DNA of 33,728 nt from Actinomycetota bacterium (GCA_046744275.1 JBKOYW010000411.1:1-33728), one strand, 5' to 3'. Positions 8,337 through 29,840 are shown, counted from the stretch's first letter. Numbers and translations are program-made. Notes: generated by a model from the letters alone, not told the origin.

Positions 8337-8344
8337 TGCTGTCG

Positions 8345-10710: not shown

Positions 10711-10916
10711 TCCCGCGGATCGTGGGCGGGCTGGGAGGGACCGTCCTCACCCGAACGGGATGAACGTCTGCCGCCCGCGCACCCCGATCGCACGACCGCC
10801 GATGGAGGCGGCAGAGGGATGGCTCCCTACCTCATTAGGGGGGTACGCCTCCTTATGCGAAACAGAGGCGTGCTCCCTTGCCGTGCCACCCGCCGGGCGA
10901 AGAAGCTCACCGTCAG

Positions 10917-13394: not shown

Positions 13395-13808
13395 TCAGGC
13401 TCCCGTGGTGGACTCGGACTCGGTCGCGTCGAGCGACGCGAGGATCGCCTGGACGGGGATCCGCCCGCTGGCGACGAGCTGGCCGCCGCTGCGGCGCAGC
13501 GCGGCGGCGATGGGTGCGGCCCATGCGTTCTCCCAGACGAGCACGACGGCCGAGGTGCCGGGCTCGAGCGCGCTCGCGGCGTCGTCGACGTCGTCGGCGC
13601 CCAGCAGGCCCGAGGACGCGCCGTCGAACTCCGCGAACGCCGCGTGGCCGTTGCCGAGCTCGGTCATCTCGAGCCGCGTCACCGAGCCGTCGTCGGCCTT
13701 GCTGAGGAACGCGACGTCGAGGACCCGGACGATGCCGCGCTCGACCAGGTCCAGCAGCATCGGGGCGATCTCGCCGGCCGGCTGGCTTCCGCGCCATTCC
13801 AGGACCAC
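13395..13808 (-). CDS. DUF6325-like protein, as restarted at GTG 13808
   Basis: 137 aa. Matching stretches: EIAPMLLDLVERGIVRVLDVAFLSKADDGSV and AVVLVWENAWAAP. Immediately upstream in the same frame lie ATG GGG CCG ATC GAC TAG (13826-13809). This means the conserved N-terminus is interrupted by an amber codon. Confidence 0.72.
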   Translation of the reverse strand: MVLEWRGSQPAGEIAPMLLDLVERGIVRVLDVAFLSKADDGSVTRLEMTELGNGHAAFAEFDGASSGLLGADDVDDAASALEPGTSAVVLVWENAWAAPIAAALRRSGGQLVASGRIPVQAILASLDATESESTTGA

Positions 13809-13846: not shown

Positions 13847-14251
13847 TCATGCCCCGATCCCAGCGTCCCGCCCGTTGCGCTGCGTCATCCGAACCGGATG
13901 AGTCCGCACGGCGAAGTCGTCAGGCCCGATCAGGTCATGGCGAAGCGCGTCCACGAGGAGGCGCACCTCGGCGGCCATGTGCTCGCGCTCGACCCGCCGC
14001 AGCGCGACCGCGATCTGCCACCGCTGGCGCTCGTGGCGCCGCTCGTACGCGTCGACCGCCCACGTCGTCGCGACGAGCTCGCGCGAGGTATCGCATTCGG
14101 CGCAGCTCAGGACGACGCGCACCCGGACGCCGTCGCCGAGATCCTCGGCGCACCAGCGGCTGACGCTCTCCGATCCGCAGAGCGGGCAGCGGCGCAGGTT
14201 CGGCGGGCGGCGTCTGAGCACCGCCCAACCGTCGCACCCGCGGGCTCGCAC
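13847..14251 (-). CDS. Hypothetical zinc-ribbon protein (CPLCG ... CAEC) with a helical C-terminal half
   Basis: Lies in ORF 13847..14440. The 5' part of that ORF overlaps the opposite-strand gene starting at 14334, so I chose GTG 14251 (alternative GTG 14221). Four Cys residues are arranged as two CxxC knuckles. The start is uncertain. Confidence 0.5.
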   Translation of the reverse strand: MRARGCDGWAVLRRRPPNLRRCPLCGSESVSRWCAEDLGDGVRVRVVLSCAECDTSRELVATTWAVDAYERRHERQRWQIAVALRRVEREHMAAEVRLLVDALRHDLIGPDDFAVRTHPVRMTQRNGRDAGIGA

Positions 14252-14319
14252 AAGATCATCCGCATCGTACGAGGCCGCCCGCGGGGCCGGGGTGCAGGCT
14301 TGCCATCGCCCACACCAAC

Positions 14320-14325
14320 AAGGAG
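14320..14325 (+). promoter_or_regulatory. Shine-Dalgarno AAGGAG, 8 nt upstream of ATG 14334
   Basis: The ACAAGGAG context and spacing are the same as at 8331-8336. Confidence 0.6.
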
Positions 14326-14333
14326 CTGACCCG

Positions 14334-14765
14334 ATGGCACAGCCGTACGACACGCCGGGGGCGGCGGGCCGCCCGACGAAGAGCGCGTTCGAGATCGAGG
14401 GCCAGGGATGGGTGACCTTCTCCGGGATCATGATCCTCATCGTCGGCGTGATGAACGTGATCTACGGCATCGCGGCGATCGACACGTCGACGTTCTTCGT
14501 CCAGGACGCGAAGTACGTCGTCCTCAACGACCTCAACACGTGGGGCTGGGTGCTGCTAGTGGTCGGGGCCATCCAGGTCGTGGCCGCCTTCGGCATCTGG
14601 TCGCGCACGGCGTGGGGGCGGTGGATCGGGATCATCTCGGCGAGCTTCAACGCGATGCTCCAGCTCCTCTTCATCTCGTCGTTCCCGCTGGCGGCACTGG
14701 CGTTGTTCTCGATCGACATCCTGGTGATCTACGGCCTCGTGGCGTGGACCTACCGCGAGACGTGA
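14334..14765 (+). CDS. Small 4-TM membrane protein, DUF7144-like, paralog 2
   Basis: 143 aa, from ATG 14334 inside ORF 13977..14765. It is close to paralog 1 at both protein and DNA level. Confidence 0.85.
   Translation: MAQPYDTPGAAGRPTKSAFEIEGQGWVTFSGIMILIVGVMNVIYGIAAIDTSTFFVQDAKYVVLNDLNTWGWVLLVVGAIQVVAAFGIWSRTAWGRWIGIISASFNAMLQLLFISSFPLAALALFSIDILVIYGLVAWTYRET
14422..14519 (+). repeat. Dispersed paralogous DNA segment, copy B (pairs with 8451..8548)
   Basis: See copy A. 87 of 98 positions are identical by hand alignment, with a 29-nt exact run. Confidence 0.8.
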
Positions 14766-14768: not shown

Positions 14769-15686
14769 TCAGCGGTTCTCGACGCGCAGAGCGAAGCTCG
14801 CGCGGGCCCTCCGTCCCGCCGGCACGCTGCGGAGCCCTTCGTGGCTCCGCAGCGCGTCGACCGGCGCGGTCATCGGCTCGAAGCAGATGACCTGTTGGTC
14901 GAGCGGCGCGAAGACCTGCGCATAGCGGTAGAAGGAGGTCAGCTCGACCGTCACGCGGCGGTTTCCGGCGGCGACCGAGAAGCGACATCCGGGCGTCACC
15001 GCGAAGAGGTGATCATATGCGCGCCGCGCGAGCGGGAACGCCTCCGGCGCCAGCTCGGTCGTCGCCCCCGTCGGTAGGCCGCGTGGATCGAGCTCGAGCG
15101 CGGTTCTGGCCGGCAGCTCGACCCACCAGTCCTCGCGGGGCTCGCCGGGCGGCGCCAGGTACGGATGGAAGCCGAACGAGAGCGGCACCGGGCCGTCCGC
15201 GCCGGCGGTCACGGTCGTCTCGACGGTCAGCGTCCCGGCCTCGAGCCGGATCGCCAGCTCGAGCGTGTGCGGGAACGGGAACACGGCCAGGAGCTCGGGG
15301 TGGGCGCCGAAGTCGAGCTCGGCTGTCAGCCACGAGGCGCCGCCGTCGACGAGCCGCCAGCTCGACGCGGCCGCGAGCGCGCCGTGGATCGGCAGGCAGT
15401 GCTCGTCGCCGTGCAGCAGCGGAGAGCCGCGGTCGAGCTCGACGCGCCGTCCGGACGCCTCGTAGGACCAGCCGCCGAGCCGGTTCGCCCACGGGTAGAG
15501 CAGTGGGATGCCGAACACCGCGCCGTGATCGAGGTAGGCGGCCAGCCCGCCGCCGAGCCCGAGCAGCTCGTCGCCGCGATGTCGCAGCGAGCAGCCGACC
15601 ATTCCCGCGTGCGTGGCGAACCGCGCCGTCAGGTCGCCCTCCGGGGCGGCGAGCTCGACGACGTCCGGGTCGAGCGCGGTCGTCAT
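14769..15686 (-). CDS. Aldose 1-epimerase (galactose mutarotase-like) family protein
   Basis: 305 aa. The pattern GIPLLYPWANRL...HG...FGFHPY is typical of the mutarotase superfamily. It is divergent from zwf. Confidence 0.82.
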   Translation of the reverse strand: MTTALDPDVVELAAPEGDLTARFATHAGMVGCSLRHRGDELLGLGGGLAAYLDHGAVFGIPLLYPWANRLGGWSYEASGRRVELDRGSPLLHGDEHCLPIHGALAAASSWRLVDGGASWLTAELDFGAHPELLAVFPFPHTLELAIRLEAGTLTVETTVTAGADGPVPLSFGFHPYLAPPGEPREDWWVELPARTALELDPRGLPTGATTELAPEAFPLARRAYDHLFAVTPGCRFSVAAGNRRVTVELTSFYRYAQVFAPLDQQVICFEPMTAPVDALRSHEGLRSVPAGRRARASFALRVENR

Positions 15687-15770
15687 GAGCAGAGTGTCGA
15701 GCGCGCGGCGAGAGGAATCTCATCCGCATGGGGTGATGGCGCCTGAGGGGGGGTCGGCTTCCGTACAGGC

Positions 15771-17210
15771 ATGGCCACGACAACCCGCGCTCGTGCGCAC
15801 CCCGCAGCGGCTTCGGAAGGGCTCGACGAGCCGCGCCCCGCCGACGTGTTCGTCGCCTTCGGGATCACCGGCGACCTCGCGAGGGTCATGACCTTCCGGT
15901 CGCTCTACCGGCTCGAGCGGCGCGGCCTGCTCGACTGCCCGATCGTCGGCGTCGCGGTCGACGACTGGACCCCGGACGACCTGCGCGAGCACGCCCACGC
16001 CGCCATCGCCGCCTCCGAGCAGGTCGACGAAGCCGTCTTCGAGCGGTTCGCCGCCCGGCTGCGCTACCTGCAGGGCGACTTCGGCGACGCCGACACGTTC
16101 ACGCGGCTCGCGTCCCTGATCGGCGACGTGCGCTCGCCGGTCTTCTACCTCGAGATCCCGCCGTTCCTGTTCGGCACCGTCGTCGCCGGCCTCGCCGGCG
16201 CCGGGCTGACGGAGAACGCGCGCGTGGTCGTCGAGAAGCCGTTCGGGCACGACCTCGCCTCGGCGCGCGAGCTCAACGAGCAGATCCACGAGCACATCGA
16301 CGAGTCGCAGCTGTACCGGATCGACCACTTCCTCGGGAAGATGGGCCTGGCGGAGATCCTCTACCTGCGGTTCGCCAACACCACCTTCGAGCCGATCTGG
16401 AACCGGAGCTACGTCTCGTCGGTCCAGATCACGATGGCCGAGGCCTTCGGCGTCGACGACCGCGGCCACTTCTACGACCCCGTCGGGGCTGTACGCGACG
16501 TCGTGGTCAACCACCTGATGCAGGTGGTCGGCGCGGCCGCGATGGAGCCGCCCGCCGGGGGCGGCCCCGCGATCCTCAAGGACTCGCTGTGCAGCGTGTT
16601 CCGCGCCATGCCGGAGGCCAAGCCGGCGCACTACGTGCGCGGCCAGCACGTCGGCTACCGGCAGATCGACGGGGTCGCGCCCGACTCCGAGACCGAGACG
16701 TACGCGGCGCTGCGGCTGGACATCGACAACTGGCGCTGGTCGGGCGTGCCGTTCTTCATCCGGACCGGCAAGTGCCTGCCGGTCACGCAGACCGAGTTGC
16801 GGCTCGTCTTCCAGCACCCGCCGCGGCTCGGCTTCGCCGGGCAGGGCCGGCGGCCGGAGCCCGACCAGCTGATCGTCCGGCTCGATCCCTCGACCGGGAT
16901 CCGGATGCTGGTCGAGGCGCAGCGCGGCGAGGCGGTCGAGCCGGAGCAGCTGCCGATGGATATCGAGTTTCCGGGCACCGCGGCCGACGAGCCGGCGCCG
17001 TACGAGGTCCTGCTGCACGCCGCCATGCGTGGCGACAGCGCGCGCTTCGTCCGCCAGGACAGCGTCGAGGAGAAGTGGCGGGTCCTGCAGCCGCTGATCG
17101 ACTCACCACCCGGCGTGCACCCGTACGCGAAGGGGACGTGGGGGCCGCCCGCCGCGGACGAGCTGATCGCCGGCCACGGGCGCTGGCACGAGCCGTGGGT
17201 GCCGGCATGA
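15771..17210 (+). CDS. zwf: Glucose-6-phosphate 1-dehydrogenase
   Basis: 479 aa. Motifs FGITGDLA (dinucleotide fold), VEKPFGHDLASA, YRIDHFLGK (active-site signature) and NHLMQV. Confidence 0.92.
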   Translation: MATTTRARAHPAAASEGLDEPRPADVFVAFGITGDLARVMTFRSLYRLERRGLLDCPIVGVAVDDWTPDDLREHAHAAIAASEQVDEAVFERFAARLRYLQGDFGDADTFTRLASLIGDVRSPVFYLEIPPFLFGTVVAGLAGAGLTENARVVVEKPFGHDLASARELNEQIHEHIDESQLYRIDHFLGKMGLAEILYLRFANTTFEPIWNRSYVSSVQITMAEAFGVDDRGHFYDPVGAVRDVVVNHLMQVVGAAAMEPPAGGGPAILKDSLCSVFRAMPEAKPAHYVRGQHVGYRQIDGVAPDSETETYAALRLDIDNWRWSGVPFFIRTGKCLPVTQTELRLVFQHPPRLGFAGQGRRPEPDQLIVRLDPSTGIRMLVEAQRGEAVEPEQLPMDIEFPGTAADEPAPYEVLLHAAMRGDSARFVRQDSVEEKWRVLQPLIDSPPGVHPYAKGTWGPPAADELIAGHGRWHEPWVPA

Positions 17211-19123
17211 GCGCCCAGGTCGCCGACGGCGCGAAGCCGATCCAGCAGGCGGCGCCGCAGAGCGCCGCCGCGCCCTCGCCGTTCACGCCGATCGCGGACT
17301 ACGCGTTCCTGTCGGACTGCCACACCGGCGCGCTCGTCGCCCCGGACGGGGCGATCGACTGGCTGTGCGTGCCGCGCTTCGACGCCCCGAGCGTGTTCGG
17401 CACCTTGCTGGACCGCGGGGCCGGGGCGTTCCGGCTCGGTCCGTTCGGCATCAATGTGCCGCTCGCCCGCGCGTACGAGCCGGGGACGAACGTGCTCAGC
17501 ACGACCTGGCAGACGCCGACCGGCTGGCTCGTCGTGCGGGACGCACTGGTCATGGGTCCGCGGCGCGGCGAGGACACGATCACGCCGCACACGCGCCCGC
17601 CGGCCGACGACGACGCCGAGCACCTGCTCGTGCGGACCTCGGTCTGCATCGAGGGCAGCGTCGAGGTCGAGCTGGTGTGCGAGCCGGTGTTCGACTACGG
17701 CCGCACGACGGCCGAGTGGTCGCTGGCCGGGGACGACCTGCACACCGCTGACGCCTCGGGCGCCGGGCAGACGATCCGGCTGCGCACGGACATGGCGGTC
17801 GGGATCGAGGCGGGCCGTGCGCGCGCGCGCCACACGCTGCGCGAGGGCGAGCGGCTGTTCTGCTCGCTGTCGTGGGCCGAGGGCCTGACATCGCCGGCCG
17901 ACGCGACGGAGGCCACCGAGCGGCTCGACGCCACCGCACGCTACTGGCGGTCATGGGTCGGCCGCGCCCGGATCCCCGACCACCGCTGGCGCCAGCCGAT
18001 CCTGCGCTCGGCGCTCGCGATCAAGGGGCTCACGTATATGCCGACCGGGGCGACGGTCGCCGCGCTCACCACCTCGTTGCCGGAGACGCCCGGCGGCGAG
18101 CGCAACTGGGACTACCGCTACACGTGGATGCGCGACTCGACGTTCACGCTGCAGGCGCTGCACTGGCTCAACCTCGACTGGGAGGCCGACGAGTTCATGC
18201 AGTTCGTCGCCGACATCGAGGCCAACGAGGACGGAGCGCTCCAGATCATGTACGGGATCGACGGGCGCCGCGACCTCACCGAGACGACGCGAGACGATCT
18301 CTCCGGCTACGCCGGCGCACGCCCGGTGCGGGTCGGCAACGGCGCCTTCGACCAGCGGCAGAACGACGTCTTCGGCGCGGTGCTCGACTCGGTCCTGCTG
18401 CACACGCGCCGCAGCGAGCGGCTGCCACGGCGGCTGTGGCCGATCGTGGAGAACCAGGCCGAGTGCGCCTCGCGCGTCTGGCGCGAGCCCGACCAGGGCA
18501 TCTGGGAGGCGCGCGGCGAGCCGCAGCACTACGTCTCCTCGAAGCTGATGTGCTGGGTGGCTCTCGACCGTGCCGCCAAGCTGGCCGGGATCCGCGGCGA
18601 CCCCGAGCGCCAGGCGGCGTGGGGGGCGACGGCGGAGGAGATCCGCGCCGACATCCTCGAGCACGGCATCGACGGACGCGGCGTGCTGCGCCAGCACTAC
18701 GCGACCGATGCGCTCGATGCGTCGACGCTGCTGGCGGCCAGCTTCGGCTTCCTGCCGCCGGACGACGAGCGACTGAAGGCGAGCGTGCTCGCGATCGAGC
18801 GAGAGCTCACCGAGCGCGGGTTCGTCCTGCGCTACAAGACCGACGAGACCGACGACGGCCTATCGGGCAAGGAGGGGACGTTCCTGATCTGCTCGTTCTG
18901 GCTCGTGACGGCGCTCGCCGTCATCGGCGAGCTCCAGCGGGCAAGGGACCTGATGGAGCGCCTGCTGCGGATCGCCTCTCCGCTCGGGCTGTACGCGGAG
19001 GAGTTCGAAACCGACACCGCCCGCCACCTCGGCAACTTCCCGCAGGCGTTCTCGCACCTCGCGCTGATCCAAGCGGCCGCCCGGATCATCGTCGCCGAGC
19101 GGCTGGCGGAGCTGACGTCATGA
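17207..19123 (+). CDS. Glycoside hydrolase family 15 protein (glucoamylase / trehalase-type)
   Basis: 638 aa, from ATG 17207 (ATGA overlap with the zwf stop). Matching stretches: IADYAFLSDCHTGALV...DWLCVPRFD, NWDYRYTWMRDS and GNFPQAFSH. Confidence 0.9.
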   Translation: MSAQVADGAKPIQQAAPQSAAAPSPFTPIADYAFLSDCHTGALVAPDGAIDWLCVPRFDAPSVFGTLLDRGAGAFRLGPFGINVPLARAYEPGTNVLSTTWQTPTGWLVVRDALVMGPRRGEDTITPHTRPPADDDAEHLLVRTSVCIEGSVEVELVCEPVFDYGRTTAEWSLAGDDLHTADASGAGQTIRLRTDMAVGIEAGRARARHTLREGERLFCSLSWAEGLTSPADATEATERLDATARYWRSWVGRARIPDHRWRQPILRSALAIKGLTYMPTGATVAALTTSLPETPGGERNWDYRYTWMRDSTFTLQALHWLNLDWEADEFMQFVADIEANEDGALQIMYGIDGRRDLTETTRDDLSGYAGARPVRVGNGAFDQRQNDVFGAVLDSVLLHTRRSERLPRRLWPIVENQAECASRVWREPDQGIWEARGEPQHYVSSKLMCWVALDRAAKLAGIRGDPERQAAWGATAEEIRADILEHGIDGRGVLRQHYATDALDASTLLAASFGFLPPDDERLKASVLAIERELTERGFVLRYKTDETDDGLSGKEGTFLICSFWLVTALAVIGELQRARDLMERLLRIASPLGLYAEEFETDTARHLGNFPQAFSHLALIQAAARIIVAERLAELTS

Positions 19124-20697
19124 GCGACTACGACGTCATCGTGATCGGCAGCGGCGCCGGCGGCGGAACGCTCGTGCGCCGTCTCGCGCCGACCGGCAAG
19201 CGCATCCTGCTGCTCGAGCGCGGCGACTGGCTGCCGCGCGAGCCGGAGAACTGGTCCGCGCATGCCGTGTTCGTCGACAACCGCTACGTGTCGCCCGACA
19301 CCTGGTACGACGGCGACGGCAGGCCGTTCCAGCCGCAGGTGCACTACTTCGTCGGCGGCGCGACGAAGCTCTACGGCGCGGCGCTGTACCGCCTGCGCGA
19401 CGAGGACTTCGGCGAGCTCGCGCACCACGACGGCGTGTCGCCGGCCTGGCCGATCGGCTACGACGAGATGGAGCCGTACTACACCGCGGCCGAGCAGATG
19501 TACTGCGTGCACGGCGCGCGCGGCGAGGATCCGACCGACCCGCCCGCCAGCGCGCCATATCCGTTCCCGGCGCTGGTGCACGAGCCGCGGATCCAGAAGC
19601 TCTCGGACGACCTGGCGGCCGCCGGCTACGAGCCGTTCCACGCGCCGTGCGGCGTCCTGCGCGATGACGCGAACCCGCCGTTCAGCACGTGCGTGCGCTG
19701 CGCGACCTGCGACGGCTTCCCGTGCCTCGTGCACGCCAAGTCCGACGCCGAGGTGCTGGGCGTGCGGCCGGCGCTCGAGCACGACAACGTGACGCTGCTG
19801 ACCAACGCCGAGGCTCTGCGGCTCGAGACCGACGCGGCCGGGACCACCGTGAAGGGCGTCGTCGTGCGAGGCGAGGACGGCGAGGAGATCTACACCGGCG
19901 ACATCGTGGTGGTGTCCTGCGGCGCGACGAACTCGGCGCGGCTGCTGCTCGCCTCGGCGAGCGACCGGCACCCCAACGGGCTCGCCAACGGCTCGGACCA
20001 GGTCGGGCGCAACTACATGTTCCACAACAGTCAGGCCGTCCTGGCGCTGTCGAAGGACGAGAACCCGACTGTGTTCCAGAAGACGCTCGGGCTCAACGAC
20101 TTCTACTTCCATGGCCCCGACGTCGACTACCCGCTCGGCAACATCCAGATGGTCGGCAAGTCGTCGGCGCCGATGTACCGCGGCGAGAAGCCCGTCGAGA
20201 CGAAGCTCGCTCCTGAGTTCTCGCTCGAGCAGGTCGCCCGCCACGCGATCGACTTCTGGCTCTCCACCGAGGACCTGCCGCGCCCCGAGAACCGCGTGAC
20301 GCTGCGCCCCGATGGGAGCGTCGCGCTCTCGTACACGCCCAACAACGAGGTGCCCAAGCAGAAGCTGTACGTCCAGCTGCGGTCGATCCTCGGCCACCTC
20401 GGCATGCACCACCACCACCTGGTTCCGCGCCACGCGTATCTGAAGAACGACATCCCGGTCGCGGGTTGCGCGCACCAGGCCGGCACGTGCCGGTTCGGTA
20501 CCGATCCCGCGACGTCGGTGCTCGACGTCGACTGCTGCGCCCACGAGGTCGACAACCTGTACGTCGTCGACACGAGCTTCTTCCCGAGCATCGGTGCGGT
20601 CAACCCGGCGCTGACGGCGATGGCCAACGCCCTGCGCGTGGGCGATCGGATCATCGAGCGGCTCGGCGCGACGGCGGGAAGGGAGGTGGTCGCGTGA
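19120..20697 (+). CDS. GMC-family FAD oxidoreductase with an internal Cys cluster
   Basis: 525 aa, from ATG 19120 (ATGA overlap). N-terminal DVIVIGSGAGGG FAD fold. Cys cluster CVRCATCDGFPC at 19690-19725. The C-terminal HQAGTCRFG and NLYVVDTSFFPS motifs are typical of GMC enzymes. Confidence 0.9.
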   Translation: MSDYDVIVIGSGAGGGTLVRRLAPTGKRILLLERGDWLPREPENWSAHAVFVDNRYVSPDTWYDGDGRPFQPQVHYFVGGATKLYGAALYRLRDEDFGELAHHDGVSPAWPIGYDEMEPYYTAAEQMYCVHGARGEDPTDPPASAPYPFPALVHEPRIQKLSDDLAAAGYEPFHAPCGVLRDDANPPFSTCVRCATCDGFPCLVHAKSDAEVLGVRPALEHDNVTLLTNAEALRLETDAAGTTVKGVVVRGEDGEEIYTGDIVVVSCGATNSARLLLASASDRHPNGLANGSDQVGRNYMFHNSQAVLALSKDENPTVFQKTLGLNDFYFHGPDVDYPLGNIQMVGKSSAPMYRGEKPVETKLAPEFSLEQVARHAIDFWLSTEDLPRPENRVTLRPDGSVALSYTPNNEVPKQKLYVQLRSILGHLGMHHHHLVPRHAYLKNDIPVAGCAHQAGTCRFGTDPATSVLDVDCCAHEVDNLYVVDTSFFPSIGAVNPALTAMANALRVGDRIIERLGATAGREVVA

Positions 20698-22007
20698 GCG
20701 CGCCGAACGGGCAGAGCCACGTCGTGATCGTGGGCGCAGGCATGGCGGGCCTCGGGTGCGCGCGACGCCTGGCGGACCACAAGCACGTGCGCGTGACGCT
20801 GATCGACCGGCACAACTACCACCAGTTCCAGCCGCTGCTCTACCAGGTCGCGACCTCCCAGCTTGCCCCTAGCGACGTCGCCTTCCAGATGCGCAAGCTG
20901 TTCCGCGAGCACCCGAATGTCGACGTCAAGCTCGTCGACGTCGCCGCCGTCGACCCGGCCACGCGAACGGTGACCGACAACGACGGGAGTTCGTACGCGG
21001 GCGACGCGCTGGTGGTGGCCACGGGCTCGGTGCCGAACTTCTTTCGCACGCCGGGCGCCGAAGAGCACGCTTTCCCGCTCTACAGCCTCGACCATGCCAC
21101 CCGCCTGCGCTCGCGGATCCTCGGCGCGTTCGAGGACGCCGACCGCGACCCCTCGCTGCTCGACCAGGGCGCGCTGAACTTCGTCGTGGTCGGCGGCGGC
21201 CCGACCGGCGTCGAGGTGGCCGGGGCGCTCGGCGACATGATCCGGGACACGATGACCGTCGAGTACCGCGACCTCGCGGTCTCGGCGGCACGCGTGCACC
21301 TCGTCGATCTCGGTCACGTGCTGCTCTCCGCGTTCTCGGAGACGGCGCACGACTATGTCGCCAAGGTGCTGCAGCGGAAGGGCGTCGAGCTGCACCTCGG
21401 CGTCAGGGTGTCGGAGATCGGGGCCGGTCACGTGACGCTGTCGGACGGGACGAGGATCGCGACCCGGTGCGTCGTCTGGGGAGGCGGCATCAAGGCTGCC
21501 CCGATCGGCCTCGCGCAGGGCGCCGGCGGCCGGGTGGACGTCCTGCCGGATCTCACCGTGGACGGCGCGCCGGGCGTGTACGCCGTCGGCGATTTCGCCA
21601 ACATCCCGGGCCCGGACGGCCACCACCTGCCCCAGCTCGGCTCGGTGGCGCAGCAGAGCGGCAGGTGGGCCGCCGACAACCTGCTCGCCGACTTCGCCGG
21701 CAAGCAGCGCAAGCCGTTCCACTACCACGACAAGGGCATCATGGCGATGATCGGGCGCGGCGCCGCGATCGCCGAGGTGGGAGCGCACCGCCACGAGCTG
21801 CACGGCGCGATCGCACACGCCGCCTGGCTGGGCGTCCACGCGTCGCTGATGACCGGAGTGCGCAACCGGGTCGAGGGCTTCCTCGACTGGGGCTGGGACG
21901 CGTTCTCGCGCACGCGCGGGCCGATGGTGCTCGACCGCTCCGACGCCGCCCGCATCGACTGGGAGGAGGATCGCGTCCCCGAGCCGGCCGCCGCCGGGCC
22001 ATCGTGA
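20694..22007 (+). CDS. ndh: Type II NADH dehydrogenase (NDH-2), FAD/NAD(P)-binding oxidoreductase
   Basis: 437 aa. GTG 20694 (GTGA overlap) is preceded by GGGAGG. Two Rossmann motifs, VVIVGAGMAG and FVVVGGGPTGVE. HQFQPLLYQVAT is typical of NDH-2. Confidence 0.88.
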   Translation: MSAPNGQSHVVIVGAGMAGLGCARRLADHKHVRVTLIDRHNYHQFQPLLYQVATSQLAPSDVAFQMRKLFREHPNVDVKLVDVAAVDPATRTVTDNDGSSYAGDALVVATGSVPNFFRTPGAEEHAFPLYSLDHATRLRSRILGAFEDADRDPSLLDQGALNFVVVGGGPTGVEVAGALGDMIRDTMTVEYRDLAVSAARVHLVDLGHVLLSAFSETAHDYVAKVLQRKGVELHLGVRVSEIGAGHVTLSDGTRIATRCVVWGGGIKAAPIGLAQGAGGRVDVLPDLTVDGAPGVYAVGDFANIPGPDGHHLPQLGSVAQQSGRWAADNLLADFAGKQRKPFHYHDKGIMAMIGRGAAIAEVGAHRHELHGAIAHAAWLGVHASLMTGVRNRVEGFLDWGWDAFSRTRGPMVLDRSDAARIDWEEDRVPEPAAAGPS

Positions 22008-23398
22008 GCGATCTGGTCGTCATCGCGCTGCCGCTGGCCTCGCTGACGGCGGCGCGGAGCCAGATGGCGTTCACGCTCGGGTTTCACATCATCCTCGCGT
22101 CGCTGGGCGTGGCGTTTCCCGCGATCATGCTGATCGCGAACTACCGCGGCCTGCGCCGCAACGACGCCGACGCGCTCCTGCTCGCCCGGCGCTGGTCGAA
22201 GGTCGTGGCGGTGACGTTCGCGGTCGGCGCCGTCACCGGCACGGTGCTCTCGTTCGAGTTCGGGCTGCTGTGGCCCGAGTTCACCGGCACCTTCGGACAG
22301 GTCTTCGGCGTCCTGTTCGCGATCGAGGGGATCTTCTTCTTCCTCGAGGCGATCTTCGTCGCGATCTACATCTTCGGCTGGACGCGCCTGGCTCCCTGGA
22401 CGCACTTCTGGGCGGGGGTCCCGATCCCGCTCTGCGGCATCGGCGGCGCGTTCTCGGTGGTGGCCGTCAACTCGTGGATGAACCAGCCGCAGGGCTACAC
22501 GATGACGAACGGCGAGGTGACGGACGTCGATCCGCTGAAGGTGATCTTCAACCCGGCGGTCCCGTACGAGGTCCCGCACATGATCCTCGCCGCCTACCTC
22601 GTCACGGGCTTCCTGGTCGCGGGTGTGTACGCGGTGGGGATGCTGCGCGGGCGCCGCGACCGCTACCACCGGCTCGGACTGCTGATCCCGCTCACGGTGG
22701 CCTGCGTCGTCACGCCGATCCAGTTCATGGTCGGCGACACGGCCGCGCGCGCGATCGCCAAGGACCAGCCGATCAAGTTCGCCGCGATGGAGTGCGTGCA
22801 GACGACGTCCACCCACGTCACCGAGTACATCTACGGTCGCTGCACGTCGGACGGCGTCAAGGGCGGGATCGGGATCCCCGGCTTCGACTCGTTCCTCGTC
22901 GGGTTCAGCACCGACACGCAGGTGACGGGGCTGGACACCGTCCCGCCCGACGACCGGCCACCCGCCAACACGATGCTGCACTGGGCCTTCGACACGATGG
23001 TCGGCATCTGCGTGGCGCTGATCCTGCTCGGGATCTGGTTCGGCATCGCCTGGTGGCGCAGGCGCGACATCCCGGGAACGCCCTGGTTCCTGCGGGCCGT
23101 CGCGATCTCAGGCGTGGCCTCCGTCGTCGCGCTCGAGTGCGGCTGGATCGTCACCGAGGTCGGCCGGCAGCCGTGGATCGTCTACAACGTGATGCGGACG
23201 AAGGACGCGGTGACGCAGGCGGACGGCGTCTGGGTCACGTTCGCGGCGGTCATGCTGCTGTACGCGTTGCTGGCCGCGACGCTCGTGATCACGCTGCGGG
23301 CGATGGCGCGACGGTGGCGCGCCGCGGACGAGCAGGACACCGACGTGCCGTACGGGCCGTCGCCCGCCGTCCCGCCCGCGTCTGAGGCGACGCAGTGA
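22004..23398 (+). CDS. cydA: Cytochrome bd oxidase subunit I (copy 2)
   Basis: 464 aa, from GTG 22004 (GTGA overlap). It shares the signature blocks of copy 1: FTLGFHIIL, GLLWPEF, QPIKFAAME, GWIVTEVGRQPWIVY. Confidence 0.93.
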   Translation: MSDLVVIALPLASLTAARSQMAFTLGFHIILASLGVAFPAIMLIANYRGLRRNDADALLLARRWSKVVAVTFAVGAVTGTVLSFEFGLLWPEFTGTFGQVFGVLFAIEGIFFFLEAIFVAIYIFGWTRLAPWTHFWAGVPIPLCGIGGAFSVVAVNSWMNQPQGYTMTNGEVTDVDPLKVIFNPAVPYEVPHMILAAYLVTGFLVAGVYAVGMLRGRRDRYHRLGLLIPLTVACVVTPIQFMVGDTAARAIAKDQPIKFAAMECVQTTSTHVTEYIYGRCTSDGVKGGIGIPGFDSFLVGFSTDTQVTGLDTVPPDDRPPANTMLHWAFDTMVGICVALILLGIWFGIAWWRRRDIPGTPWFLRAVAISGVASVVALECGWIVTEVGRQPWIVYNVMRTKDAVTQADGVWVTFAAVMLLYALLAATLVITLRAMARRWRAADEQDTDVPYGPSPAVPPASEATQ

Positions 23399-24462
23399 GC
23401 AGCGCCGACGCCGTCGCGTGGGTGCTGTGGATCGGCGTGACCGCGTACGCGGTGTTCGGCGGCGCGGATTTCGGGGCCGGGTTCTGGAGCCTGGTTGCCG
23501 GCGGCGGCGGTCGCGGCAAGCGCGCCCGTGAGCTGATCGACTGGGCGATCGGCCCCGTCTGGGAGGCCAACCACGTCTGGCTGATCTTCGTCCTCGTGGT
23601 GCTCTGGACCGGGTTCTCGAGCGCGTTCGAGGCGATCTTCTCGACGCTCTTCATCCCGCTCAGCCTGGCCGCGCTCGGCATCGTGCTGCGCGGCGCGGGA
23701 TTCGCGTTCCATAAGACGGCGCGACGCTTCAAAGGCCGACAGCTCGCCGAGCGCATCTTCGGGCTCTCGTCGTTGCTCACGCCGTTCTTCATGGGGACCG
23801 TGGTGGGGGCGGTCGCGTCCGGCCGGGTGCCGGTCGGCAACGCCGCCGGCGATCCCGTCACCAGCTGGCTCAATCTGCTCTCGCTCGTGATCGGCGCGCT
23901 CTTCGTCGCCACGTCCGCGTACCTCGCGGCCGTGTTCCTCGTCAGCGACGCCCGGCGCGCCCGCGCCGCCGACCTCGAGCGCTACTTCACCGTCCGAGCG
24001 CTCACGGCCGCGGTCGCCGCCGGTGCGCTCGCCATCGCCGGCATCTTTGCGCTGCGCGCGGACGCGCGCTTCGTCTACGACGGCCTGACCGGCGACGGAC
24101 TGCCGCTCGTGATCGTGTCGCTGCTGTGCGGACTGGCGGCGCTCGTCCTGCTCCGTCGCGGGGCGCGGCGCGGCGTGCGCCCCCTCGCCGTTGGCGCCGT
24201 CGCCGCCGTCATCTGGGGCTGGGGCGTCGCGCAGCACCCGTACCTGCTGCCGCAGCAGCTCACGATCGACGACGCCGCCGCGCCCAGCGCCACCCTGACG
24301 ACCGTGCTGATCGTGTTCGGCGTCGCCGTCGTGCTCGTGGTGCCGGCGATCGCGTTGCTCTACACGCTCGCACAACGGAGCCTGATCGAGGAAACCTCGA
24401 GCCCGACACCGCGCGCGGCCGGAACGGTTGACGACGCCGTCCGCCGGAGCGCGGGCTCCTAA
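23395..24462 (+). CDS. cydB: Cytochrome bd oxidase subunit II (copy 2)
   Basis: 355 aa, from GTG 23395 (GTGA overlap). Motifs GGADFGAG and GPVWEANHVWLIF. Confidence 0.9.
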   Translation: MSSADAVAWVLWIGVTAYAVFGGADFGAGFWSLVAGGGGRGKRARELIDWAIGPVWEANHVWLIFVLVVLWTGFSSAFEAIFSTLFIPLSLAALGIVLRGAGFAFHKTARRFKGRQLAERIFGLSSLLTPFFMGTVVGAVASGRVPVGNAAGDPVTSWLNLLSLVIGALFVATSAYLAAVFLVSDARRARAADLERYFTVRALTAAVAAGALAIAGIFALRADARFVYDGLTGDGLPLVIVSLLCGLAALVLLRRGARRGVRPLAVGAVAAVIWGWGVAQHPYLLPQQLTIDDAAAPSATLTTVLIVFGVAVVLVVPAIALLYTLAQRSLIEETSSPTPRAAGTVDDAVRRSAGS

Positions 24463-26186
24463 GGCACCGGCGTTCGGGCTCGATCAGCGCGGGTCGCGCT
24501 ACGTTCTGCGCGATCGTCTTGTTGTGCCGGCGTCCGAGACCCGTCCGCGTGGACGAAGTACAGCCTGATGGTCCCGGCCCGGGTCGTCTCGGCCACCAGC
24601 TGCGCGCCGTCGGCGAACTGGTCGCTCATCTCGTCGTAGCTCAGCAGCAGGTCCCGCTCGTGCAGCGGCGGGACGAGGACCGGCGCGTTCGGGTCGGGCG
24701 CGAGCCGGTGCACGTGCCCGTGGCCCAGCTCGATCCGGAGCTCCGCGGCGGCGAGCGCGTTGAAGTCGTCGCTCGACGTGAGCAGCAGGGCATCCGTGAC
24801 CTCGTCGAGCTCTGCCTCGCGGTTCACCGCGTCGACCATCATCCGCCCGCGGTCGGCTTCCAGACCCGCCGCCTGCGCCGCGGCCTGCTCGTGGGCGTCG
24901 CCGGTCCAGATCCGCACGCCTGCGCCTGCGCGGCGCAGGGCGCGGGCCACCTCGAGCGCCCAGGCATGACCGCCGACGACGAGCGCCGTGATGCCCTCGG
25001 CGCCCGCCACTCCGAGCCGGCGCGCGACCGGCACCGCCGTCAGCCCGTACAGCACGACGGTCCCGAAGATCGCGACGAAAACGACGGGCAGGACGGCGTC
25101 GGCGCCGGCGACGCCCTGCTGTGAGAGCTGGAGCCCGAACGCGGACGCCGAGGCCCCGGCCACGATCCCGCGCGGGGCCATCCAGGCGATGAAGCCGCGC
25201 TCACGCAGCGACAGGGACGAGCCCCACGTCGAGAGCGCGACCGCGACGGGCCGGATGATGAGCGCCATGACGGCGACGAGGGCGAGCGCCTCGGGCAGCA
25301 CGGCCTCGACGTCAGCCGGCGAAACCGACGCCGCGATCAGGACGAACAGCACCCCGACCAGCAGCTGGACCAGGGTCTGCTGGAACTCGAGCATCAGCGA
25401 GACGTCGATCGATCGCTGGTTTGCGAGCGCCATGCCCATCGCGGTCGTGGCCACGAAGCCGGCGTCCTCGCGGAGCAGATCGGCGGCGACCAGCGCGCCG
25501 ACCACGGTCGCGAGCGTGAGCGGGACCGCTTGGCGAGGCGCCCGGCGCTGCGCCTCGGCGAGCAGCAGCCGCAACACGACGACGCCCACCACCGCGACCA
25601 GCAGCCCGACGGCGATGCTCAGCAGCATCTCGCCTGGATGCCACGCCTCCCCGGTCGCGGCGGCATGGAACACCAGAACGCCGAGCAGCGCGCCGACCGG
25701 GTCGACGAGCACGCCCTCCCACGTGAGCAGTGACCGGACCTCGTGCTGCGGACGCACGAACGAGAGCAGCGGTAGCACGACCGTCGGGCCGGAGACGACG
25801 AGGATCGCCCCGATCAGCAGCGCGACGCGCTTGTCGAGCCCGCCGATCAGCAGCGCGGCCGCCGCCGACACCGCGAGCCAGGTGACGAGCGCGCCGACGG
25901 CGACGAGCCGGACGACGAGCCGGCGCGCATCGGGGGCGATCGCGCCGAATGAGAGCCGGAGGCCGGCCTCGAACAGGATCACCCCGACGGCGATCGACAC
26001 GAACGGCTGGAAGAGGTCACCGAGCAGCCGGTCCGGATGGACATCGTCGGTCACGATGCCGGCGACGAAGCCGACCGGGAGGAGGACGACGATCGCCGGA
26101 AGCCGCGTCAGCCGCGCGACGAGCTGCGCCGCGACGGCGAGGCCGAGCACGAGGCCGAGGCCGAGAAGGACGTCGTCGCTCGACAT
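24459..26186 (-). CDS. Cation:proton antiporter (Na+/H+ exchanger family) with a C-terminal RCK/TrkA-like domain
   Basis: 575 aa. About 12 TM helices beginning LGLGLVLGLAVAAQLVARLTRLPAIVVLL. The cytoplasmic tail has VVGGHAWALEVARAL (a Rossmann-like motif). Its stop overlaps the cydB stop region by 4 nt. Confidence 0.86.
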   Translation of the reverse strand: MSSDDVLLGLGLVLGLAVAAQLVARLTRLPAIVVLLPVGFVAGIVTDDVHPDRLLGDLFQPFVSIAVGVILFEAGLRLSFGAIAPDARRLVVRLVAVGALVTWLAVSAAAALLIGGLDKRVALLIGAILVVSGPTVVLPLLSFVRPQHEVRSLLTWEGVLVDPVGALLGVLVFHAAATGEAWHPGEMLLSIAVGLLVAVVGVVVLRLLLAEAQRRAPRQAVPLTLATVVGALVAADLLREDAGFVATTAMGMALANQRSIDVSLMLEFQQTLVQLLVGVLFVLIAASVSPADVEAVLPEALALVAVMALIIRPVAVALSTWGSSLSLRERGFIAWMAPRGIVAGASASAFGLQLSQQGVAGADAVLPVVFVAIFGTVVLYGLTAVPVARRLGVAGAEGITALVVGGHAWALEVARALRRAGAGVRIWTGDAHEQAAAQAAGLEADRGRMMVDAVNREAELDEVTDALLLTSSDDFNALAAAELRIELGHGHVHRLAPDPNAPVLVPPLHERDLLLSYDEMSDQFADGAQLVAETTRAGTIRLYFVHADGSRTPAQQDDRAERSATRADRARTPVP

Positions 26187-27484: not shown

Positions 27485-29086
27485 ATGTCCGCCGATCCAC
27501 CCCGGGCCGCCCCGCCCCGAGCCACGCTGGTGCTCGTCGCGCTGATCCTCGTCGCGGGCGTCGCCAACCTGAACCTGTCGGTCGCCAACGTCGCCCTGCC
27601 CGACATCGGCAGGCACTTCGACTCGTCGCAGACGACGCTCGACCTGATCGCGGTCGGCTACTCGCTCGGCCTGGCGGCCACTGTGCTCTACCTCGGCGCC
27701 CTGGGCGACCGCTACGGGCGCAAGCTGATGCTGCTGCTCGGCCTCGCGCTCTCGGTGCCGGCGTGCCTGCTGGCGGCGTTCGCCCCGAGCGACGGCGTGC
27801 TGTTCGGAGCCCGCGTCCTCGGCGGTGTCTCCGCAGGCATGGCGTACCCCACGACGCTCGCGCTGATCACCGCGCTGTGGTCGGGCCCGGGCCGGACGAA
27901 GGCGATCGCGCTGTGGTCGGCGGTCGGTGGGGCGATCGCGTCTCTCGGCCCGCTGATCTCCGGCGCGCTGCTCGAGCAGTTCGACTGGGGGTCGGTCTTC
28001 GTGATCACGTTGCCGCTGGTGGTGATCGCGTTCCCGATGGCCATGCGGTACGTGCCCGGCCACGTCAACGAGACCACCGACCCGGTCGACAGCCTCGGCG
28101 GAGTGCTCTCGGTGGCCCTCGTCTCGGCCCTGATCCTCGCGATCAACTTCGCCGCGGTCCCCGACAAGGGAGACCTGACGCTGGCGCTCGCGGCGATCGC
28201 GGTTGTCGGATTGATCGCCTTCGTCATCCGCCAGCGCCACGCGAGCAACCCGCTGTACGACCTGCACGTCGCGTCGCGACGGATCTTCTGGGTCGCCGCA
28301 TGCGCGGGGATCATCGTGTTCGGATCGCTGATGGGCGCCGCGTTCATCAGCCAGCAGTTCCTGCAGAACGTGCTCGGGTACTCGACGCTCGGCGCGGGGG
28401 CGGCGTTCCTGCCCGCCGTCGTGTTCATGGTGCTCGTCGCCCCGCGCTCGGCCAAGCTCGTCGAGGCGCGGGGCGCTCGCTTCACGCTGCTGTGCGGCTA
28501 CGTGTTCCTGCTGCTCGGCTTCGGCACGATGCTGCTGCTCTGGAAGGAGGGCAGCCCTTACTGGAAGATCGGCATCGCCTACGTCTTCATCGGGATCGGC
28601 GTGGGGTTCGCCGGCACGCCCGCGTCGCACTCGCTGACGGGCTCGGTGCCCGTGCGGCGGGCGGGGATGGCGTCGGGCACCGCCGACCTGCAGCGCGACC
28701 TCGGCGGCGCGATCATGCAGTCGATCTTCGGCGCCCTGCTCACGGCCGGCTACGCCGTGGCCGCCGCCGCGGCGGTCGCCGGCGCGCCGAACAACCAGCA
28801 GGTCAACGAGAGCGTCCAGAACCAGCTCACGAAGTCGTTCGCCGGCGCCGAGTCCGTCGCGCAGCAGTTCCCGCAGTACACGAGCCAGATCACGGCCGCC
28901 GCAAAGCAGTCCTTCCTCGACGGCGCGGACTGGGCGTACACCGCCGGCATCATTGCCGTGCTGCTCGGCGCCGCTCTCGTGGCGTTCCTCTTCCCCTCGA
29001 GGGACGAGGAGGCACGGCTACTCGAGCGCTACCAGGCGGAGGACACGCGGCAGCCCGAGCGCGATCAGGCGCTCGCCGCCGTCTGA
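27485..29086 (+). CDS. MFS transporter, DHA2 (14-TMS drug:H+ antiporter, EmrB/QacA-like)
   Basis: Lies in ORF 27446..29086. LGALGDRYGRKLMLL is MFS motif A, and the length and helix count fit DHA2. ATG 27485 was chosen to leave promoter room. ATG 27446 is the alternative. Confidence 0.86.
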   Translation: MSADPPRAAPPRATLVLVALILVAGVANLNLSVANVALPDIGRHFDSSQTTLDLIAVGYSLGLAATVLYLGALGDRYGRKLMLLLGLALSVPACLLAAFAPSDGVLFGARVLGGVSAGMAYPTTLALITALWSGPGRTKAIALWSAVGGAIASLGPLISGALLEQFDWGSVFVITLPLVVIAFPMAMRYVPGHVNETTDPVDSLGGVLSVALVSALILAINFAAVPDKGDLTLALAAIAVVGLIAFVIRQRHASNPLYDLHVASRRIFWVAACAGIIVFGSLMGAAFISQQFLQNVLGYSTLGAGAAFLPAVVFMVLVAPRSAKLVEARGARFTLLCGYVFLLLGFGTMLLLWKEGSPYWKIGIAYVFIGIGVGFAGTPASHSLTGSVPVRRAGMASGTADLQRDLGGAIMQSIFGALLTAGYAVAAAAAVAGAPNNQQVNESVQNQLTKSFAGAESVAQQFPQYTSQITAAAKQSFLDGADWAYTAGIIAVLLGAALVAFLFPSRDEEARLLERYQAEDTRQPERDQALAAV

Positions 29087-29824: not shown

Positions 29825-29840
29825 CCCGATCGGATGAGCC

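Follow-up and report, generated by a model that had tools for sequence, protein, structure and literature searches.

What would bring a glycoside hydrolase and two sugar dehydrogenases together with a terminal oxidase in one operon? The question is raised by a stretch of DNA from an Actinomycetota bacterium (GCA_046744275.1, JBKOYW010000411.1), referred to here as the window, which is 33,728 nucleotides (nt) long and has a G+C content of 72%. The block under study (15771-24462, plus strand) is made up of zwf, a GH15 glycoside hydrolase gene, a GMC flavoprotein gene, ndh, cydA, and cydB. The closest relatives of the window are metagenome-assembled genomes of Solirubrobacteraceae (Thermoleophilia, Actinomycetota), with 88% identity in the GMC protein. 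The answer that we favor, at a little better than even confidence, is that the block is one transcription unit that forms the catabolic and respiratory center of a MalT-type regulon, in which a glucoside would be converted to glucose and the electrons passed to quinone and then to O2.

The overlapping operon and its six products

The six genes translate to uninterrupted open reading frames (ORFs) of 479 (zwf), 638 (GH15), 525 (GMC), 437 (ndh), 464 (cydA), and 355 (cydB) amino acids. A first-pass annotation of this DNA had reported that no intergenic DNA separates them, and translation re-derived every 4-nt overlap: ATGA at 17207-17210 and 19120-19123, and GTGA at 20694-20697, 22004-22007, and 23395-23398. 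The six family assignments made at that time all hold by Pfam and NCBIfam profiles and by homology to PDB structures, and the divergent aldose 1-epimerase gene placed upstream of zwf was confirmed by its Pfam Aldose_epim match.

The two kinds of overlap do not carry the same weight. Of the codons in the six genes, 43% have G and 1.9% have A in third position. Next to a TGA stop, a GTGA would then arise by chance about four times in ten and is no proof alone; each of the two ATGA junctions has a chance of about 2%. The GTG starts have independent support. Homology begins shortly after them, at residue 7 of ndh (PDB relative), at residue 13 of cydA (residue 18 of Mycobacterium smegmatis AppC), and at residue 7 of the Pfam model for cydB. 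Position 23395 is the earliest possible start in the cydB ORF, and the ndh start is preceded by a strong Shine-Dalgarno sequence, GGGAGGTG. With the worst-case choice of starts, non-coding DNA amounts to no more than about 36 nt at any junction. In related loci, a start that gives the 4-nt overlap is available at the zwf-GH15 junction in 51/57, at GH15-GMC in 53/66, and at cydA-cydB in 14/15. GMC and ndh mostly overlap by 4 to 11 nt in these loci, and the ndh-cydA junction ranges from a 4-nt overlap to a 21-nt gap.

A scan of positions 15771-24462 found no internal sigma-70-like promoters or terminator-like sites. A terminator-like hairpin follows cydB, and the total number of such sites in the scan is not above chance. 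Shine-Dalgarno sequences are missing from zwf, GH15, and cydA. Lacking a ribosome-binding site, GH15 and cydA would therefore depend on translational coupling. A cation/proton antiporter gene lies tail to tail with cydB, with a 4-nt overlap at the stop codon, and the hairpin falls within its 3' end; a homolog of this gene is found near the Streptomyces canus cluster described below. No Rfam families or tRNAs were found in the window.

The GMC protein aligns over its full length with the alpha subunit of the Burkholderia cepacia FAD-dependent glucose dehydrogenase (BcGDH; 6a2u/8hdd, 2e-37) and with the large subunit of Gluconobacter fructose dehydrogenase (7w2j, 3e-28). Other GMC enzymes in the PDB match it in the C-terminal motif only. 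The link to sugar oxidation made in the first-pass annotation thus gains a more precise form, in that the protein is predicted to belong to the electron-transferring FAD/[3Fe-4S] sugar dehydrogenase branch and not to the oxidases. In BcGDH, a surface 3Fe-4S cluster with ligands Cys212, Cys218, and Cys222 relays electrons from FAD (PMC6719666). The window protein has a cysteine loop, C191-x2-C194-x2-C197-x4-C202, that aligns with the Cys212-222 loop with the register 2 residues off. Conservation was followed in a 10-sequence alignment of orthologs from Actinomycetota, Proteobacteria, Cyanobacteria, Bacteroidota, and Bacillota (A1) and in 32 closer relatives (A3). C191, C194, and C202 are invariant in A1 and invariant or nearly so in A3, where C194 and C202 are kept in at least 90%, and C197 is not conserved. 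The three kept cysteines would be enough for a 3Fe-4S cluster, which needs three ligands. Of the His/Asn catalytic pair, H452 is invariant and N495 is present in 9/10 sequences of A1.

Neither a signal peptide nor a transmembrane segment is predicted for the GMC protein. Genes for a twin-arginine translocation (Tat) hitch-hiker subunit or a multi-heme cytochrome c subunit were found neither in the operon nor in the 80 related loci and 16 plasmid contexts described below. Having no signal peptide, no room for partner subunits, and no such neighbors, the protein is best viewed as a cytoplasmic stand-alone relative and not as a member of the complex family.

Zwf is of the type of mycobacterial Zwf1 and the M. 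avium enzyme (PDB 4LGV, 1.7e-158). Residues K18 and R50 give the Escherichia coli glucose-6-phosphate dehydrogenase its NADP preference (PMC4807051). The window protein does not have these determinants, with T at the K18 position and V, followed by DD, at the R50 position. All 55 orthologs with the β1 motif found have T or S in place of K18. None of the 57 with the β2 motif found has a basic residue in place of R50, and in all of them D or E comes next. Because the K18/R50-type residues are missing, it is plausible that Zwf makes NADH.

NDH-2 has two dinucleotide-binding GxGxxG folds and is homologous to solved NDH-2 enzymes. The best match is PDB 9mqy, a non-electrogenic NADH:quinone reductase (2e-67, residues 7-422), followed by YjlD and the Caldalkalibacillus NDH-2. 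The second Rossmann strand ends in Asp, an acidic NADH-type residue. The C-terminal membrane-anchoring domain NDH2_C is weak (21.9 bits against a cutoff of 27.7), and the alignment with 9mqy reaches residue 422.

CydA and CydB show homology to cytochrome bd subunits along their entire length, and CydA is assigned to the qOR-2 subfamily. Its PDB matches are strongest to qOR-2 (1.1e-124), followed by the Geobacillus qOR-3 (1.2e-79) and qOR-1 (1e-33 to 1e-36). The alignment with M. smegmatis AppC covers residues 13-453 with a single one-residue gap, and the Q-loop is short. The AppC hallmarks M26, E113, F117, E120, E268, E382, and E389 are all kept; M21, E108, E115, and E385 of the window protein align to M26, E113, E120, and E389, where M26 replaces the Phe of qOR-1 near heme b595. 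The structure 9R2G is that of M. smegmatis bd-II (AppCB), the first qOR-2 to be characterized. This menaquinol oxidase has a short Q-loop and is up-regulated when O2 is low, and the role of bd-II in M. smegmatis is described as "poorly understood" (PMC12994193).

A second qOR-2 bd pair lies 18 kb upstream in the window, with CydA 50% and CydB 47% identical to the operon copies. No strict MalT-type site was found before this pair. In 24 of the 80 related loci, the bd genes come with a gene for a protein of ~154 amino acids (e.g., L005:467-931, plus strand), usually placed after cydDC or cydB. The protein has hydrophobic segments, matches no Pfam or NCBIfam model, and is absent from the window. 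In the closest relative, L001, it directly follows cydB, and it may serve as an accessory subunit or in assembly.

The remaining enzyme of the operon is a predicted cytoplasmic GH15 hydrolase of the trehalase-like clade, the substrate of which would be trehalose or a related alpha-glucoside. Since hydrolysis by GH15 enzymes inverts the anomeric configuration, the presence of an epimerase gene nearby makes sense. Solved relatives of the epimerase are distant only. In 10 related loci, a gene for an MGH1-like GH63 hydrolase (mannosylglycerate/glucosylglycerate hydrolase family) stands directly before zwf (e.g., L059:13-2157, plus strand), which places a second compatible-solute hydrolase nearby.

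Gene linkage in related and distant genomes

One genome per GTDB species was scanned with the GMC protein. At least 574 loci with relatives were found, and the best 80 were typed by tblastn against a family panel. These 80 loci are all from Thermoleophilia (Solirubrobacteraceae, Conexibacteraceae, Thermoleophilaceae, and Gaiellaceae), and the family counts are minima because several loci are cut by contig ends. GMC is present in 80/80, zwf in 72/80, and GH15 in 70/80. NDH-2 is found in 71/80, as the window type in 43 and as a paralog at 36-45% identity in 28. Cytochrome bd is found in 56/80, of which 19 are qOR-2 and 37 are a canonical bd (27-30% identical) followed by the ABC-transporter pair cydDC.

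The order of the genes varies. ndh may stand before zwf, after GMC, or on the opposite strand, bd may be upstream, downstream, or divergent, and GH15 is sometimes inverted. That NDH-2 and bd are both replaced by non-orthologous forms in the same slot, in loci that are also rearranged, speaks for selection on the combination and against simple inheritance. Loss of the linkage in related genomes had been named in the first-pass annotation as an outcome that would refute the module; the linkage is kept across Thermoleophilia and rebuilt in Streptomycetaceae. The earlier observation that cydDC is not in the block is explained by the bd subfamily: the bd of the block is a qOR-2, and sister genomes with a qOR-1 bd in that slot do carry cydDC behind it.

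Other families recur near these genes. Among the 80 loci, a PF04199 cyclase is found in 24, the epimerase in 21, DUF389 in 21, a CLC chloride channel in 14, a MalT-like regulator in 12, and phosphoglucose isomerase in 7. The PF04199 "putative cyclase" has a metal-dependent hydrolase fold (e.g., L057:13876-14811 and L081:6205-7149, both plus strand) and is a candidate for the missing lactonase. In S. canus, the cyclase gene begins 4 nt after the GH15 stop codon.

The GMC relatives listed by a protein homolog search were all at least 79% identical, and distant contexts were taken instead from a tblastn search of a plasmid collection. This search found 288 records with GMC, the top matches of which are 47-59% identical over the full length and come from five phyla. 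Sixteen of the top 30 records, from Proteobacteria, Cyanobacteria, Bacteroidota, Bacillota, and Actinomycetota, were opened as a sample of the top matches and not as a census; their GMC orthologs are 50-59% identical. Of these 16 contexts, 6 have an adjacent terminal oxidase (bd or heme-copper quinol oxidase), 11-13 have a gene for a GH15 enzyme, glucoamylase, or glucosidase, 6 have an SMP-30 gluconolactonase, and 7 have DoxX.

Two of the records, from S. canus and Embleya, carry GH15 and GMC facing a convergent ndh-like-cydA-cydB set, and the cydA product is 52-53% identical to that of the window and is a qOR-2. The Streptomycetaceae arrangement is an independent reassembly. The annotated S. 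canus record also lists gluconokinase, an Na+/H+ exchanger, DUF389, and a chloride channel. In Paraburkholderia fungorum, Burkholderia PAMC 28687, Mesorhizobium, Gloeothece, and Nostoc C052, a GH15 or glucoamylase-type gene is found with SDR, GMC, DoxX, SMP-30 gluconolactonase, and VOC genes, to which the P. fungorum context adds a cyo-like quinol oxidase. Lichenicola has oxidase subunits, GMC, and then GH15. A Trichormus variabilis plasmid has coxBAC, GMC, and cydAB, plus a second cydAB pair. The Roseomonas context holds DoxX, gluconolactonase, cupin, and VOC genes and no glycosidase gene, and its GMC gene overlaps by 4 nt the gene for subunit II, the first of a heme-copper quinol oxidase operon (L217:7986-10495). 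In Aureimonas, GMC overlaps zwf by 4 nt (L216:7986-11143), and a chloride channel gene follows. With these two overlaps, the logic of the window operon is met independently in bacteria other than Actinomycetota. The lactonase and gluconokinase neighbors point to an aldonolactone as the product of GMC, as expected from oxidation of glucose at C1.

The GMC set of Proteobacteria and Cyanobacteria (L082, L086, L209, L210, L215, L217, and L218) is made up of DoxX, a cupin or hypothetical protein, SMP-30 gluconolactonase, and VOC, often with an SDR. A membrane or quinone partner is missing for the stand-alone GMC protein of Thermoleophilia, and DoxX may have this function. Membrane proteins of the DUF389/TIGR00341 type are found near the module in the window, in the Thermoleophilia loci counted above, in S. 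canus (L081:3183-4136), and in Gloeothece (L209:1-182). CLC chloride channels are likewise shared with S. canus, Paraburkholderia, and Aureimonas, and an aquaporin is found in Azospirillum. The DUF389, CLC, and aquaporin neighbors hint at osmotic or ion stress.

A predicted MalT-type operator and regulator

The divergent zwf and epimerase promoters have in common a predicted operator of the form TCAYCC-N5-GGRTGA. Its right edge lies 35 nt short of the zwf ATG and its left edge 34 nt past that of the epimerase, which places its center ~42 nt upstream of both starts. The motif is found six times in the window against 0.007 expected, and 0/300 dinucleotide-preserving shuffles reach six copies. 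Spacer 5 is the only one found, and all six copies lie outside family-assigned genes (Table 1).

TCATCC-N5-GGATGA is the binding site of a MalT-like activator of the LuxR family in Actinoplanes sp. SE50/110; there the site overlaps the -35 region and ends 34.4±1.0 nt from the transcription start (PMC7567727). In the window, ATG codons lie 34-37 nt from several operator sites, consistent with the Actinoplanes spacing. Because the spacing to both ATG codons is 34/35 nt, one site at about -42 could serve two divergent leaderless transcripts.

The operator is also a property of the related loci. A total of 102 strict sites were found in 1.56 Mb, of which 36 are before zwf and 9-11 are before a separately transcribed ndh. 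The others precede epimerase, cyclase, CLC, and MalT-like genes, and transporters. An in-frame zwf start lies exactly at +35 from the operator in seven further loci. A metagenome scan with the extended palindrome, 14 bases in all, was restricted to contigs with a GC content of at least 0.62, since low-GC matches are probably chance. In independent contigs, the operator lies between cydAB/GMC and zwf/ndh units, and it also precedes MalT-like regulators, SHOCT and PLDc_N proteins, sulfatases, DUF7144, DUF1269/DUF6325, CLC, and SulP. The operator was absent from the Streptomyces, proteobacterial, and cyanobacterial loci searched, so regulation in those loci must differ.

The candidate activator is a MalT-like protein of the STAND/LAL type encoded 2.7 kb upstream of the operon. 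Its score against NCBIfam MalT PRK04841 is 250 bits, below the cutoff of 537. The operator lies upstream of MalT-like homologs in 10/21 cases and upstream of homologs of the NarL-type response regulator in 0/6. The hypoxia or dormancy role suggested in the first-pass annotation finds no support in the analysis, and the only regulatory evidence points to a MalT-type and probably sugar-sensing activator. The window would then be a MalT-type regulon island with the operon as its metabolic core.

Two other modes of control were considered and rejected. Redox control by Rex was dismissed because no Rex operator was found in the window, even at 3 mismatches. The NarL-type response regulator, the best PDB match of which is DevR/DosR, is partnered with a MASE1-HisKA_3 histidine kinase, and the only perfect operator copy of the window lies between the two genes. 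DosR/DevR-like control by this protein as the primary regulator was set aside given the 0/6 against 10/21 homologs with a site and the identity of the motif with the published MalT site. The two-component pair probably belongs to the MalT-type regulon without being its master, and this would give a regulatory cascade.

Genes of other families also accompany the operator. DUF7144, DUF6325/DUF1269, and CMD families recur beside operator sites on unrelated metagenome contigs. In the window there are three DUF7144 paralogs, two of them at the C-terminal end of implausibly long ORFs, and the starts of these genes may be mis-set or frameshifted.

Table 1. Coordinates of the operon, the predicted operators, and other features of the window
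Feature	Position	Strand	Evidence or context
zwf, glucose-6-phosphate dehydrogenase	15771-17210	+	TIGR00871 458 bits (cutoff 401); NF009492 443 bits (cutoff 428)
GH15 glycoside hydrolase, predicted trehalase-like clade, cytoplasmic	17207-19123	+	Pfam Glyco_hydro_15 (PF00723) 1.7e-68; TREH_N (PF19291) 2.3e-12
Stand-alone GMC flavoprotein, putative glucose (aldose) 1-dehydrogenase	19120-20697	+	Homologous to the catalytic subunits of FAD/[3Fe-4S] sugar dehydrogenases
ndh, type II NADH:quinone oxidoreductase	20694-22007	+	Pyr_redox_2 6.9e-48
cydA (appC), cytochrome bd subunit I, qOR-2	22004-23398	+	Pfam 427 bits; PDB 9r2g match 1.1e-124
cydB (appB), cytochrome bd subunit II	23395-24462	+	Pfam Cyt_bd_oxida_II 5e-62, 210 bits
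Predicted MalT-type operator TCATCCGCATGGGGTGA	15720-15736	.	TCAYCC-N5-GGRTGA; common to divergent zwf and epimerase promoters
Aldose-1-epimerase-family gene	14769-15686	-	Pfam Aldose_epim 4.5e-19; divergent from zwf, common operator
MalT-like (STAND/LAL, LuxR-type helix-turn-helix) regulator, candidate activator	10878-13100	+	AAA_22 and GerE; own operator 10747-10763
Operator copy	10747-10763	.	Between DUF389 (-) and MalT-like gene (+)
Operator copy	6176-6192	.	Between 153-aa gene (-) and YrhK-like gene (+); ATG 6229 is 37 nt off
Operator copy	13885-13901	.	Between DUF6325 (-) and DUF7144 region (+)
Operator copy	29821-29837	.	Stretch with unsupported ORFs only
Perfect operator copy TCACCCTCCGCGGGTGA	31070-31086	.	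Between NarL-type response regulator (-) and MASE1 histidine kinase (+)
NarL-type response regulator	30332-31027	-	Best PDB match DevR/DosR 5.6e-18
MASE1-HisKA_3 histidine kinase	31132-32781	+
DUF389/TIGR00341 membrane protein	9409-10371	-
DUF7144 paralog	7262-8794	+
DUF7144 paralog	13977-14765	+
DUF7144 paralog	29065-29451	-
DUF6325/DUF1269-like gene	13395-13808	-
CMD-family gene	8828-9154	+
Second qOR-2 bd pair	1723-3084 and 3053-4318	+
Cation/proton antiporter gene	24459-26186	-	Tail to tail with cydB
Terminator-like hairpin	24492-24515		After cydB

From glucoside to O2: the proposed pathway, its alternatives, and known systems

In the scheme that we infer, which extends to the substrates, the GMC acceptor, the Zwf cofactor, the inducer, and the physiological setting, the MalT-like STAND activator would bind at 15720-15736 and turn on the epimerase leftward and the six-gene operon rightward. 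Both mRNAs are probably leaderless. The signal is probably an alpha-glucoside, and the activator would, by analogy, be sugar- and ATP-dependent. Cytoplasmic GH15 would hydrolyze trehalose or a related alpha-glucoside, serving as a compatible or storage solute, to glucose, and the epimerase would equilibrate the glucose anomers. GMC would oxidize glucose at C1 to gluconolactone and pass the electrons through its Fe-S cluster to menaquinone, either directly or through a partner. Zwf would oxidize glucose-6-phosphate made by a kinase encoded elsewhere, and the resulting NADH would be reoxidized by NDH-2 with menaquinone as acceptor. The qOR-2 bd would oxidize menaquinol and reduce O2, in a step that is electrogenic without pumping protons. 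The two sugar branches would meet at 6-phosphogluconate, and the GMC branch would give reducing power before ATP is spent. The stop/start overlaps without Shine-Dalgarno sequences at GH15 and cydA would couple translation along the mRNA.

The placing of GMC in the FAD/[3Fe-4S] dehydrogenase branch, together with its orthologs beside GH15, gluconolactonase, gluconokinase, and terminal oxidases, makes the sugar-to-quinone-to-O2 reading stronger. The finding that ndh, when transcribed separately, has the same operator as zwf also counts in its support. The block was originally described as a possible self-contained module, and this part of the description is not supported. Glucokinase and lactonase are absent, as had been noted at the time, and the operon is one unit of a larger regulon with the epimerase, transporters, ion channels, and DUF membrane proteins.

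Several observations weigh against the pathway. Glucokinase, lactonase, and gluconokinase are all missing from the window, which leaves both branches incomplete in cis. All 80 loci come from a single class and were picked out by their GMC protein; inheritance, and not selection, may therefore account for part of the synteny. Viewed in reverse, qOR-2 cydAB is found with GMC/GH15 in 3/6 other actinobacterial records and without them in 3/6; the link is frequent and not obligatory. The characterized GMC relatives need cytochrome c and hitch-hiker subunits, which are absent here, as is the DoxX partner of other phyla. An AlphaFold2 model of GMC made from near-identical homologs alone has a mean predicted local distance difference test score of 52 and is unusable for the geometry of the Cys cluster. 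GH15 reaches 360 bits with the NCBIfam archaeal TreH1 model, below the equivalog cutoff of 820, and 39 bits with the oligosaccharide amylase model, and no related solved structure was found, even at E=10. The residue pattern of Zwf has been noted for the actinobacterial Zwf clade, where the cofactor preference is not settled (PMC4807051). No clear -10 hexamer was found at the expected position upstream of zwf, and the Actinoplanes MalT region holds none of zwf, GH15, GMC, ndh, or cydAB.

Some of the same evidence could reflect a shared switch without a pathway. Under this explanation, the genes belong to a general stress, stationary-phase, or osmotic regulon, each enzyme acts alone, and co-transcription gives shared timing. 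Zwf would supply NADPH for stress defense, GH15 would mobilize a compatible solute, respiration would be tuned by bd and NDH-2, and GMC would have an unrelated function. The operator does precede unrelated genes (SHOCT, PLDc_N, sulfatases, DUF7144, DUF1269/DUF6325, chloride channels, SulP, AI-2E, MFS, and a two-component system), the module repeatedly has ion channels and antiporters nearby, in several phyla, and no common pathway was found by the authors for the Actinoplanes MalT region (PMC7567727). However, the pairings of GMC with GH15, with lactonase or gluconokinase, with a terminal oxidase, and with zwf survive rearrangement and phylum borders even where the regulon is absent, which shared timing does not predict. 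Two bd subfamilies and two NDH-2 paralog types also substitute in the same position, and we regard the shared switch as rather unlikely. Oxygen scavenging, respiratory protection, or the dumping of reductant, with sugar as a sacrificial electron source for a low-coupling chain, is improbable in our judgment. NDH-2 and bd do form the least-coupled aerobic chain, the GMC gene of Trichormus stands between cox and cyd genes on the plasmid of a nitrogen fixer, and qOR-2 enzymes have been proposed as O2 scavengers and are up-regulated at low O2 in M. smegmatis (PMC12994193). Set against this, no genes for O2-sensitive enzymes are found in the window or recur in related loci, and the regulator resembles a sugar sensor and not an O2 or redox sensor, with no Rex site.

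The substrate of GMC could also be something other than the C1 of free glucose, such as the C3 of a glucoside, gluconate, a polyol, or a non-sugar alcohol. Fructose dehydrogenase is a member of the FAD/Fe-S dehydrogenase family, as are sorbitol, gluconate, and glucoside-3 dehydrogenases. In Proteobacteria and Cyanobacteria, the GMC ortholog is found with SDR, VOC, and cupin genes, and Asn474/Asn475, the proposed glucose-recognition residues of BcGDH, are not kept and align to C450 and A451. The SMP-30 gluconolactonase neighbor in 6/16 contexts and the gluconokinase in Streptomyces speak instead for an aldonolactone product, and a different substrate appears quite improbable. The glucoside-to-O2 pathway thus remains the reading that we prefer.

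A broader claim is put forward tentatively, as possible but short of even confidence. The stand-alone FAD/[3Fe-4S] GMC proteins could be a widespread class of cytoplasmic aldose dehydrogenases that feed electrons of glucose, released by GH15 from storage or compatible glucosides, to the respiratory chain with whichever quinol oxidase is at hand (bd qOR-1, bd qOR-2, or heme-copper). In Thermoleophilia, together with NAD-linked Zwf and NDH-2, they would be the physiological electron supply of qOR-2 and the main output of the MalT-type regulon.

Thermoleophilia are abundant and rarely cultured soil bacteria. A regulated, low-coupling burning of trehalose-type solutes would bear on soil survival, rewetting respiration, and maintenance energy. 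The qOR-2 enzymes are the second most common bd subfamily, with a first structure in 2026 (PMC12994193), and a conserved operon that ties a qOR-2 bd to particular dehydrogenases offers a concrete, testable answer on their electron donors. The analysis also points to a little-studied class, the cytoplasmic FAD/Fe-S GMC dehydrogenases without cytochrome or hitch-hiker subunits, found in at least 574 species-level genomes and several phyla, and it gives a functional handle on a MalT-activated island of actinomycetes without a recognized common pathway. No description of the zwf-GH15-GMC-ndh-cydAB cluster, of the recurrent association of stand-alone FeS-type GMC with GH15 and a terminal oxidase, or of a respiratory operon recruited into a MalT-type island was found in the open-access literature. 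The individual parts all come from known families (Zwf, GH15, GMC, NDH-2, qOR-2 bd, and the MalT-type regulon).

Of the known systems, the direct-electron-transfer FAD dehydrogenases of B. cepacia (6A2U, PMC6719666) and Gluconobacter (7W2J) share with the window GMC protein the N-terminal FAD-binding fold and the His/Asn pair, and its cysteine loop aligns with their 3Fe-4S position with the register offset given above. These enzymes are periplasmic heterotrimers with a Tat hitch-hiker gamma subunit and a tri-heme cytochrome c subunit, and their electrons pass to ubiquinone. The window protein differs in having no signal peptide, gamma subunit, or cytochrome c, in its CxxCxxCxxxxC spacing, and in its predicted cytoplasmic, menaquinone context.

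The GH15 trehalases of M. smegmatis, M. tuberculosis (Rv2402), and Thermoplasma (TreH1/TreH2) resemble the window protein in their catalytic and trehalase-like N-terminal domains and in being cytoplasmic. The window protein is far nearer the TreH models than the glucoamylase models. It falls short of the archaeal equivalog cutoff, and its substrate could be another alpha-glucoside.

The MalT regulon of Actinoplanes SE50/110 (Droste et al. 2020, PMC7567727) has the same palindrome, a cis-encoded MalT-like regulator with an upstream site, and a spacing of ~34-35 nt. Members common to the two regulons are AI-2E, MFS, DUF1269, SHOCT, a glucosidase, a class II glutamine amidotransferase, and DUF2231, and gene order is shuffled between species in both. 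Binding and induction are experimental in Actinoplanes and are predicted here from sequence alone. The six genes that the Actinoplanes region lacks are the most conserved operon of the present island.

The actinobacterial cydABDC operon combines a qOR-1 bd with the CydDC exporter. In its classical form, it is not fused to dehydrogenase genes, whereas in 37/80 sister loci cydA-cydB-cydD-cydC follows zwf-GH15-GMC-ndh and replaces the qOR-2 pair; the window has a qOR-2 without cydDC. Like M. smegmatis bd-II, the window CydA is predicted to be of the menaquinol oxidase type with a short Q-loop. The appCB genes of M. smegmatis adjoin cydAB, with no dedicated dehydrogenases reported, whereas the window pair is coupled by overlaps to NDH-2 and two sugar dehydrogenases.

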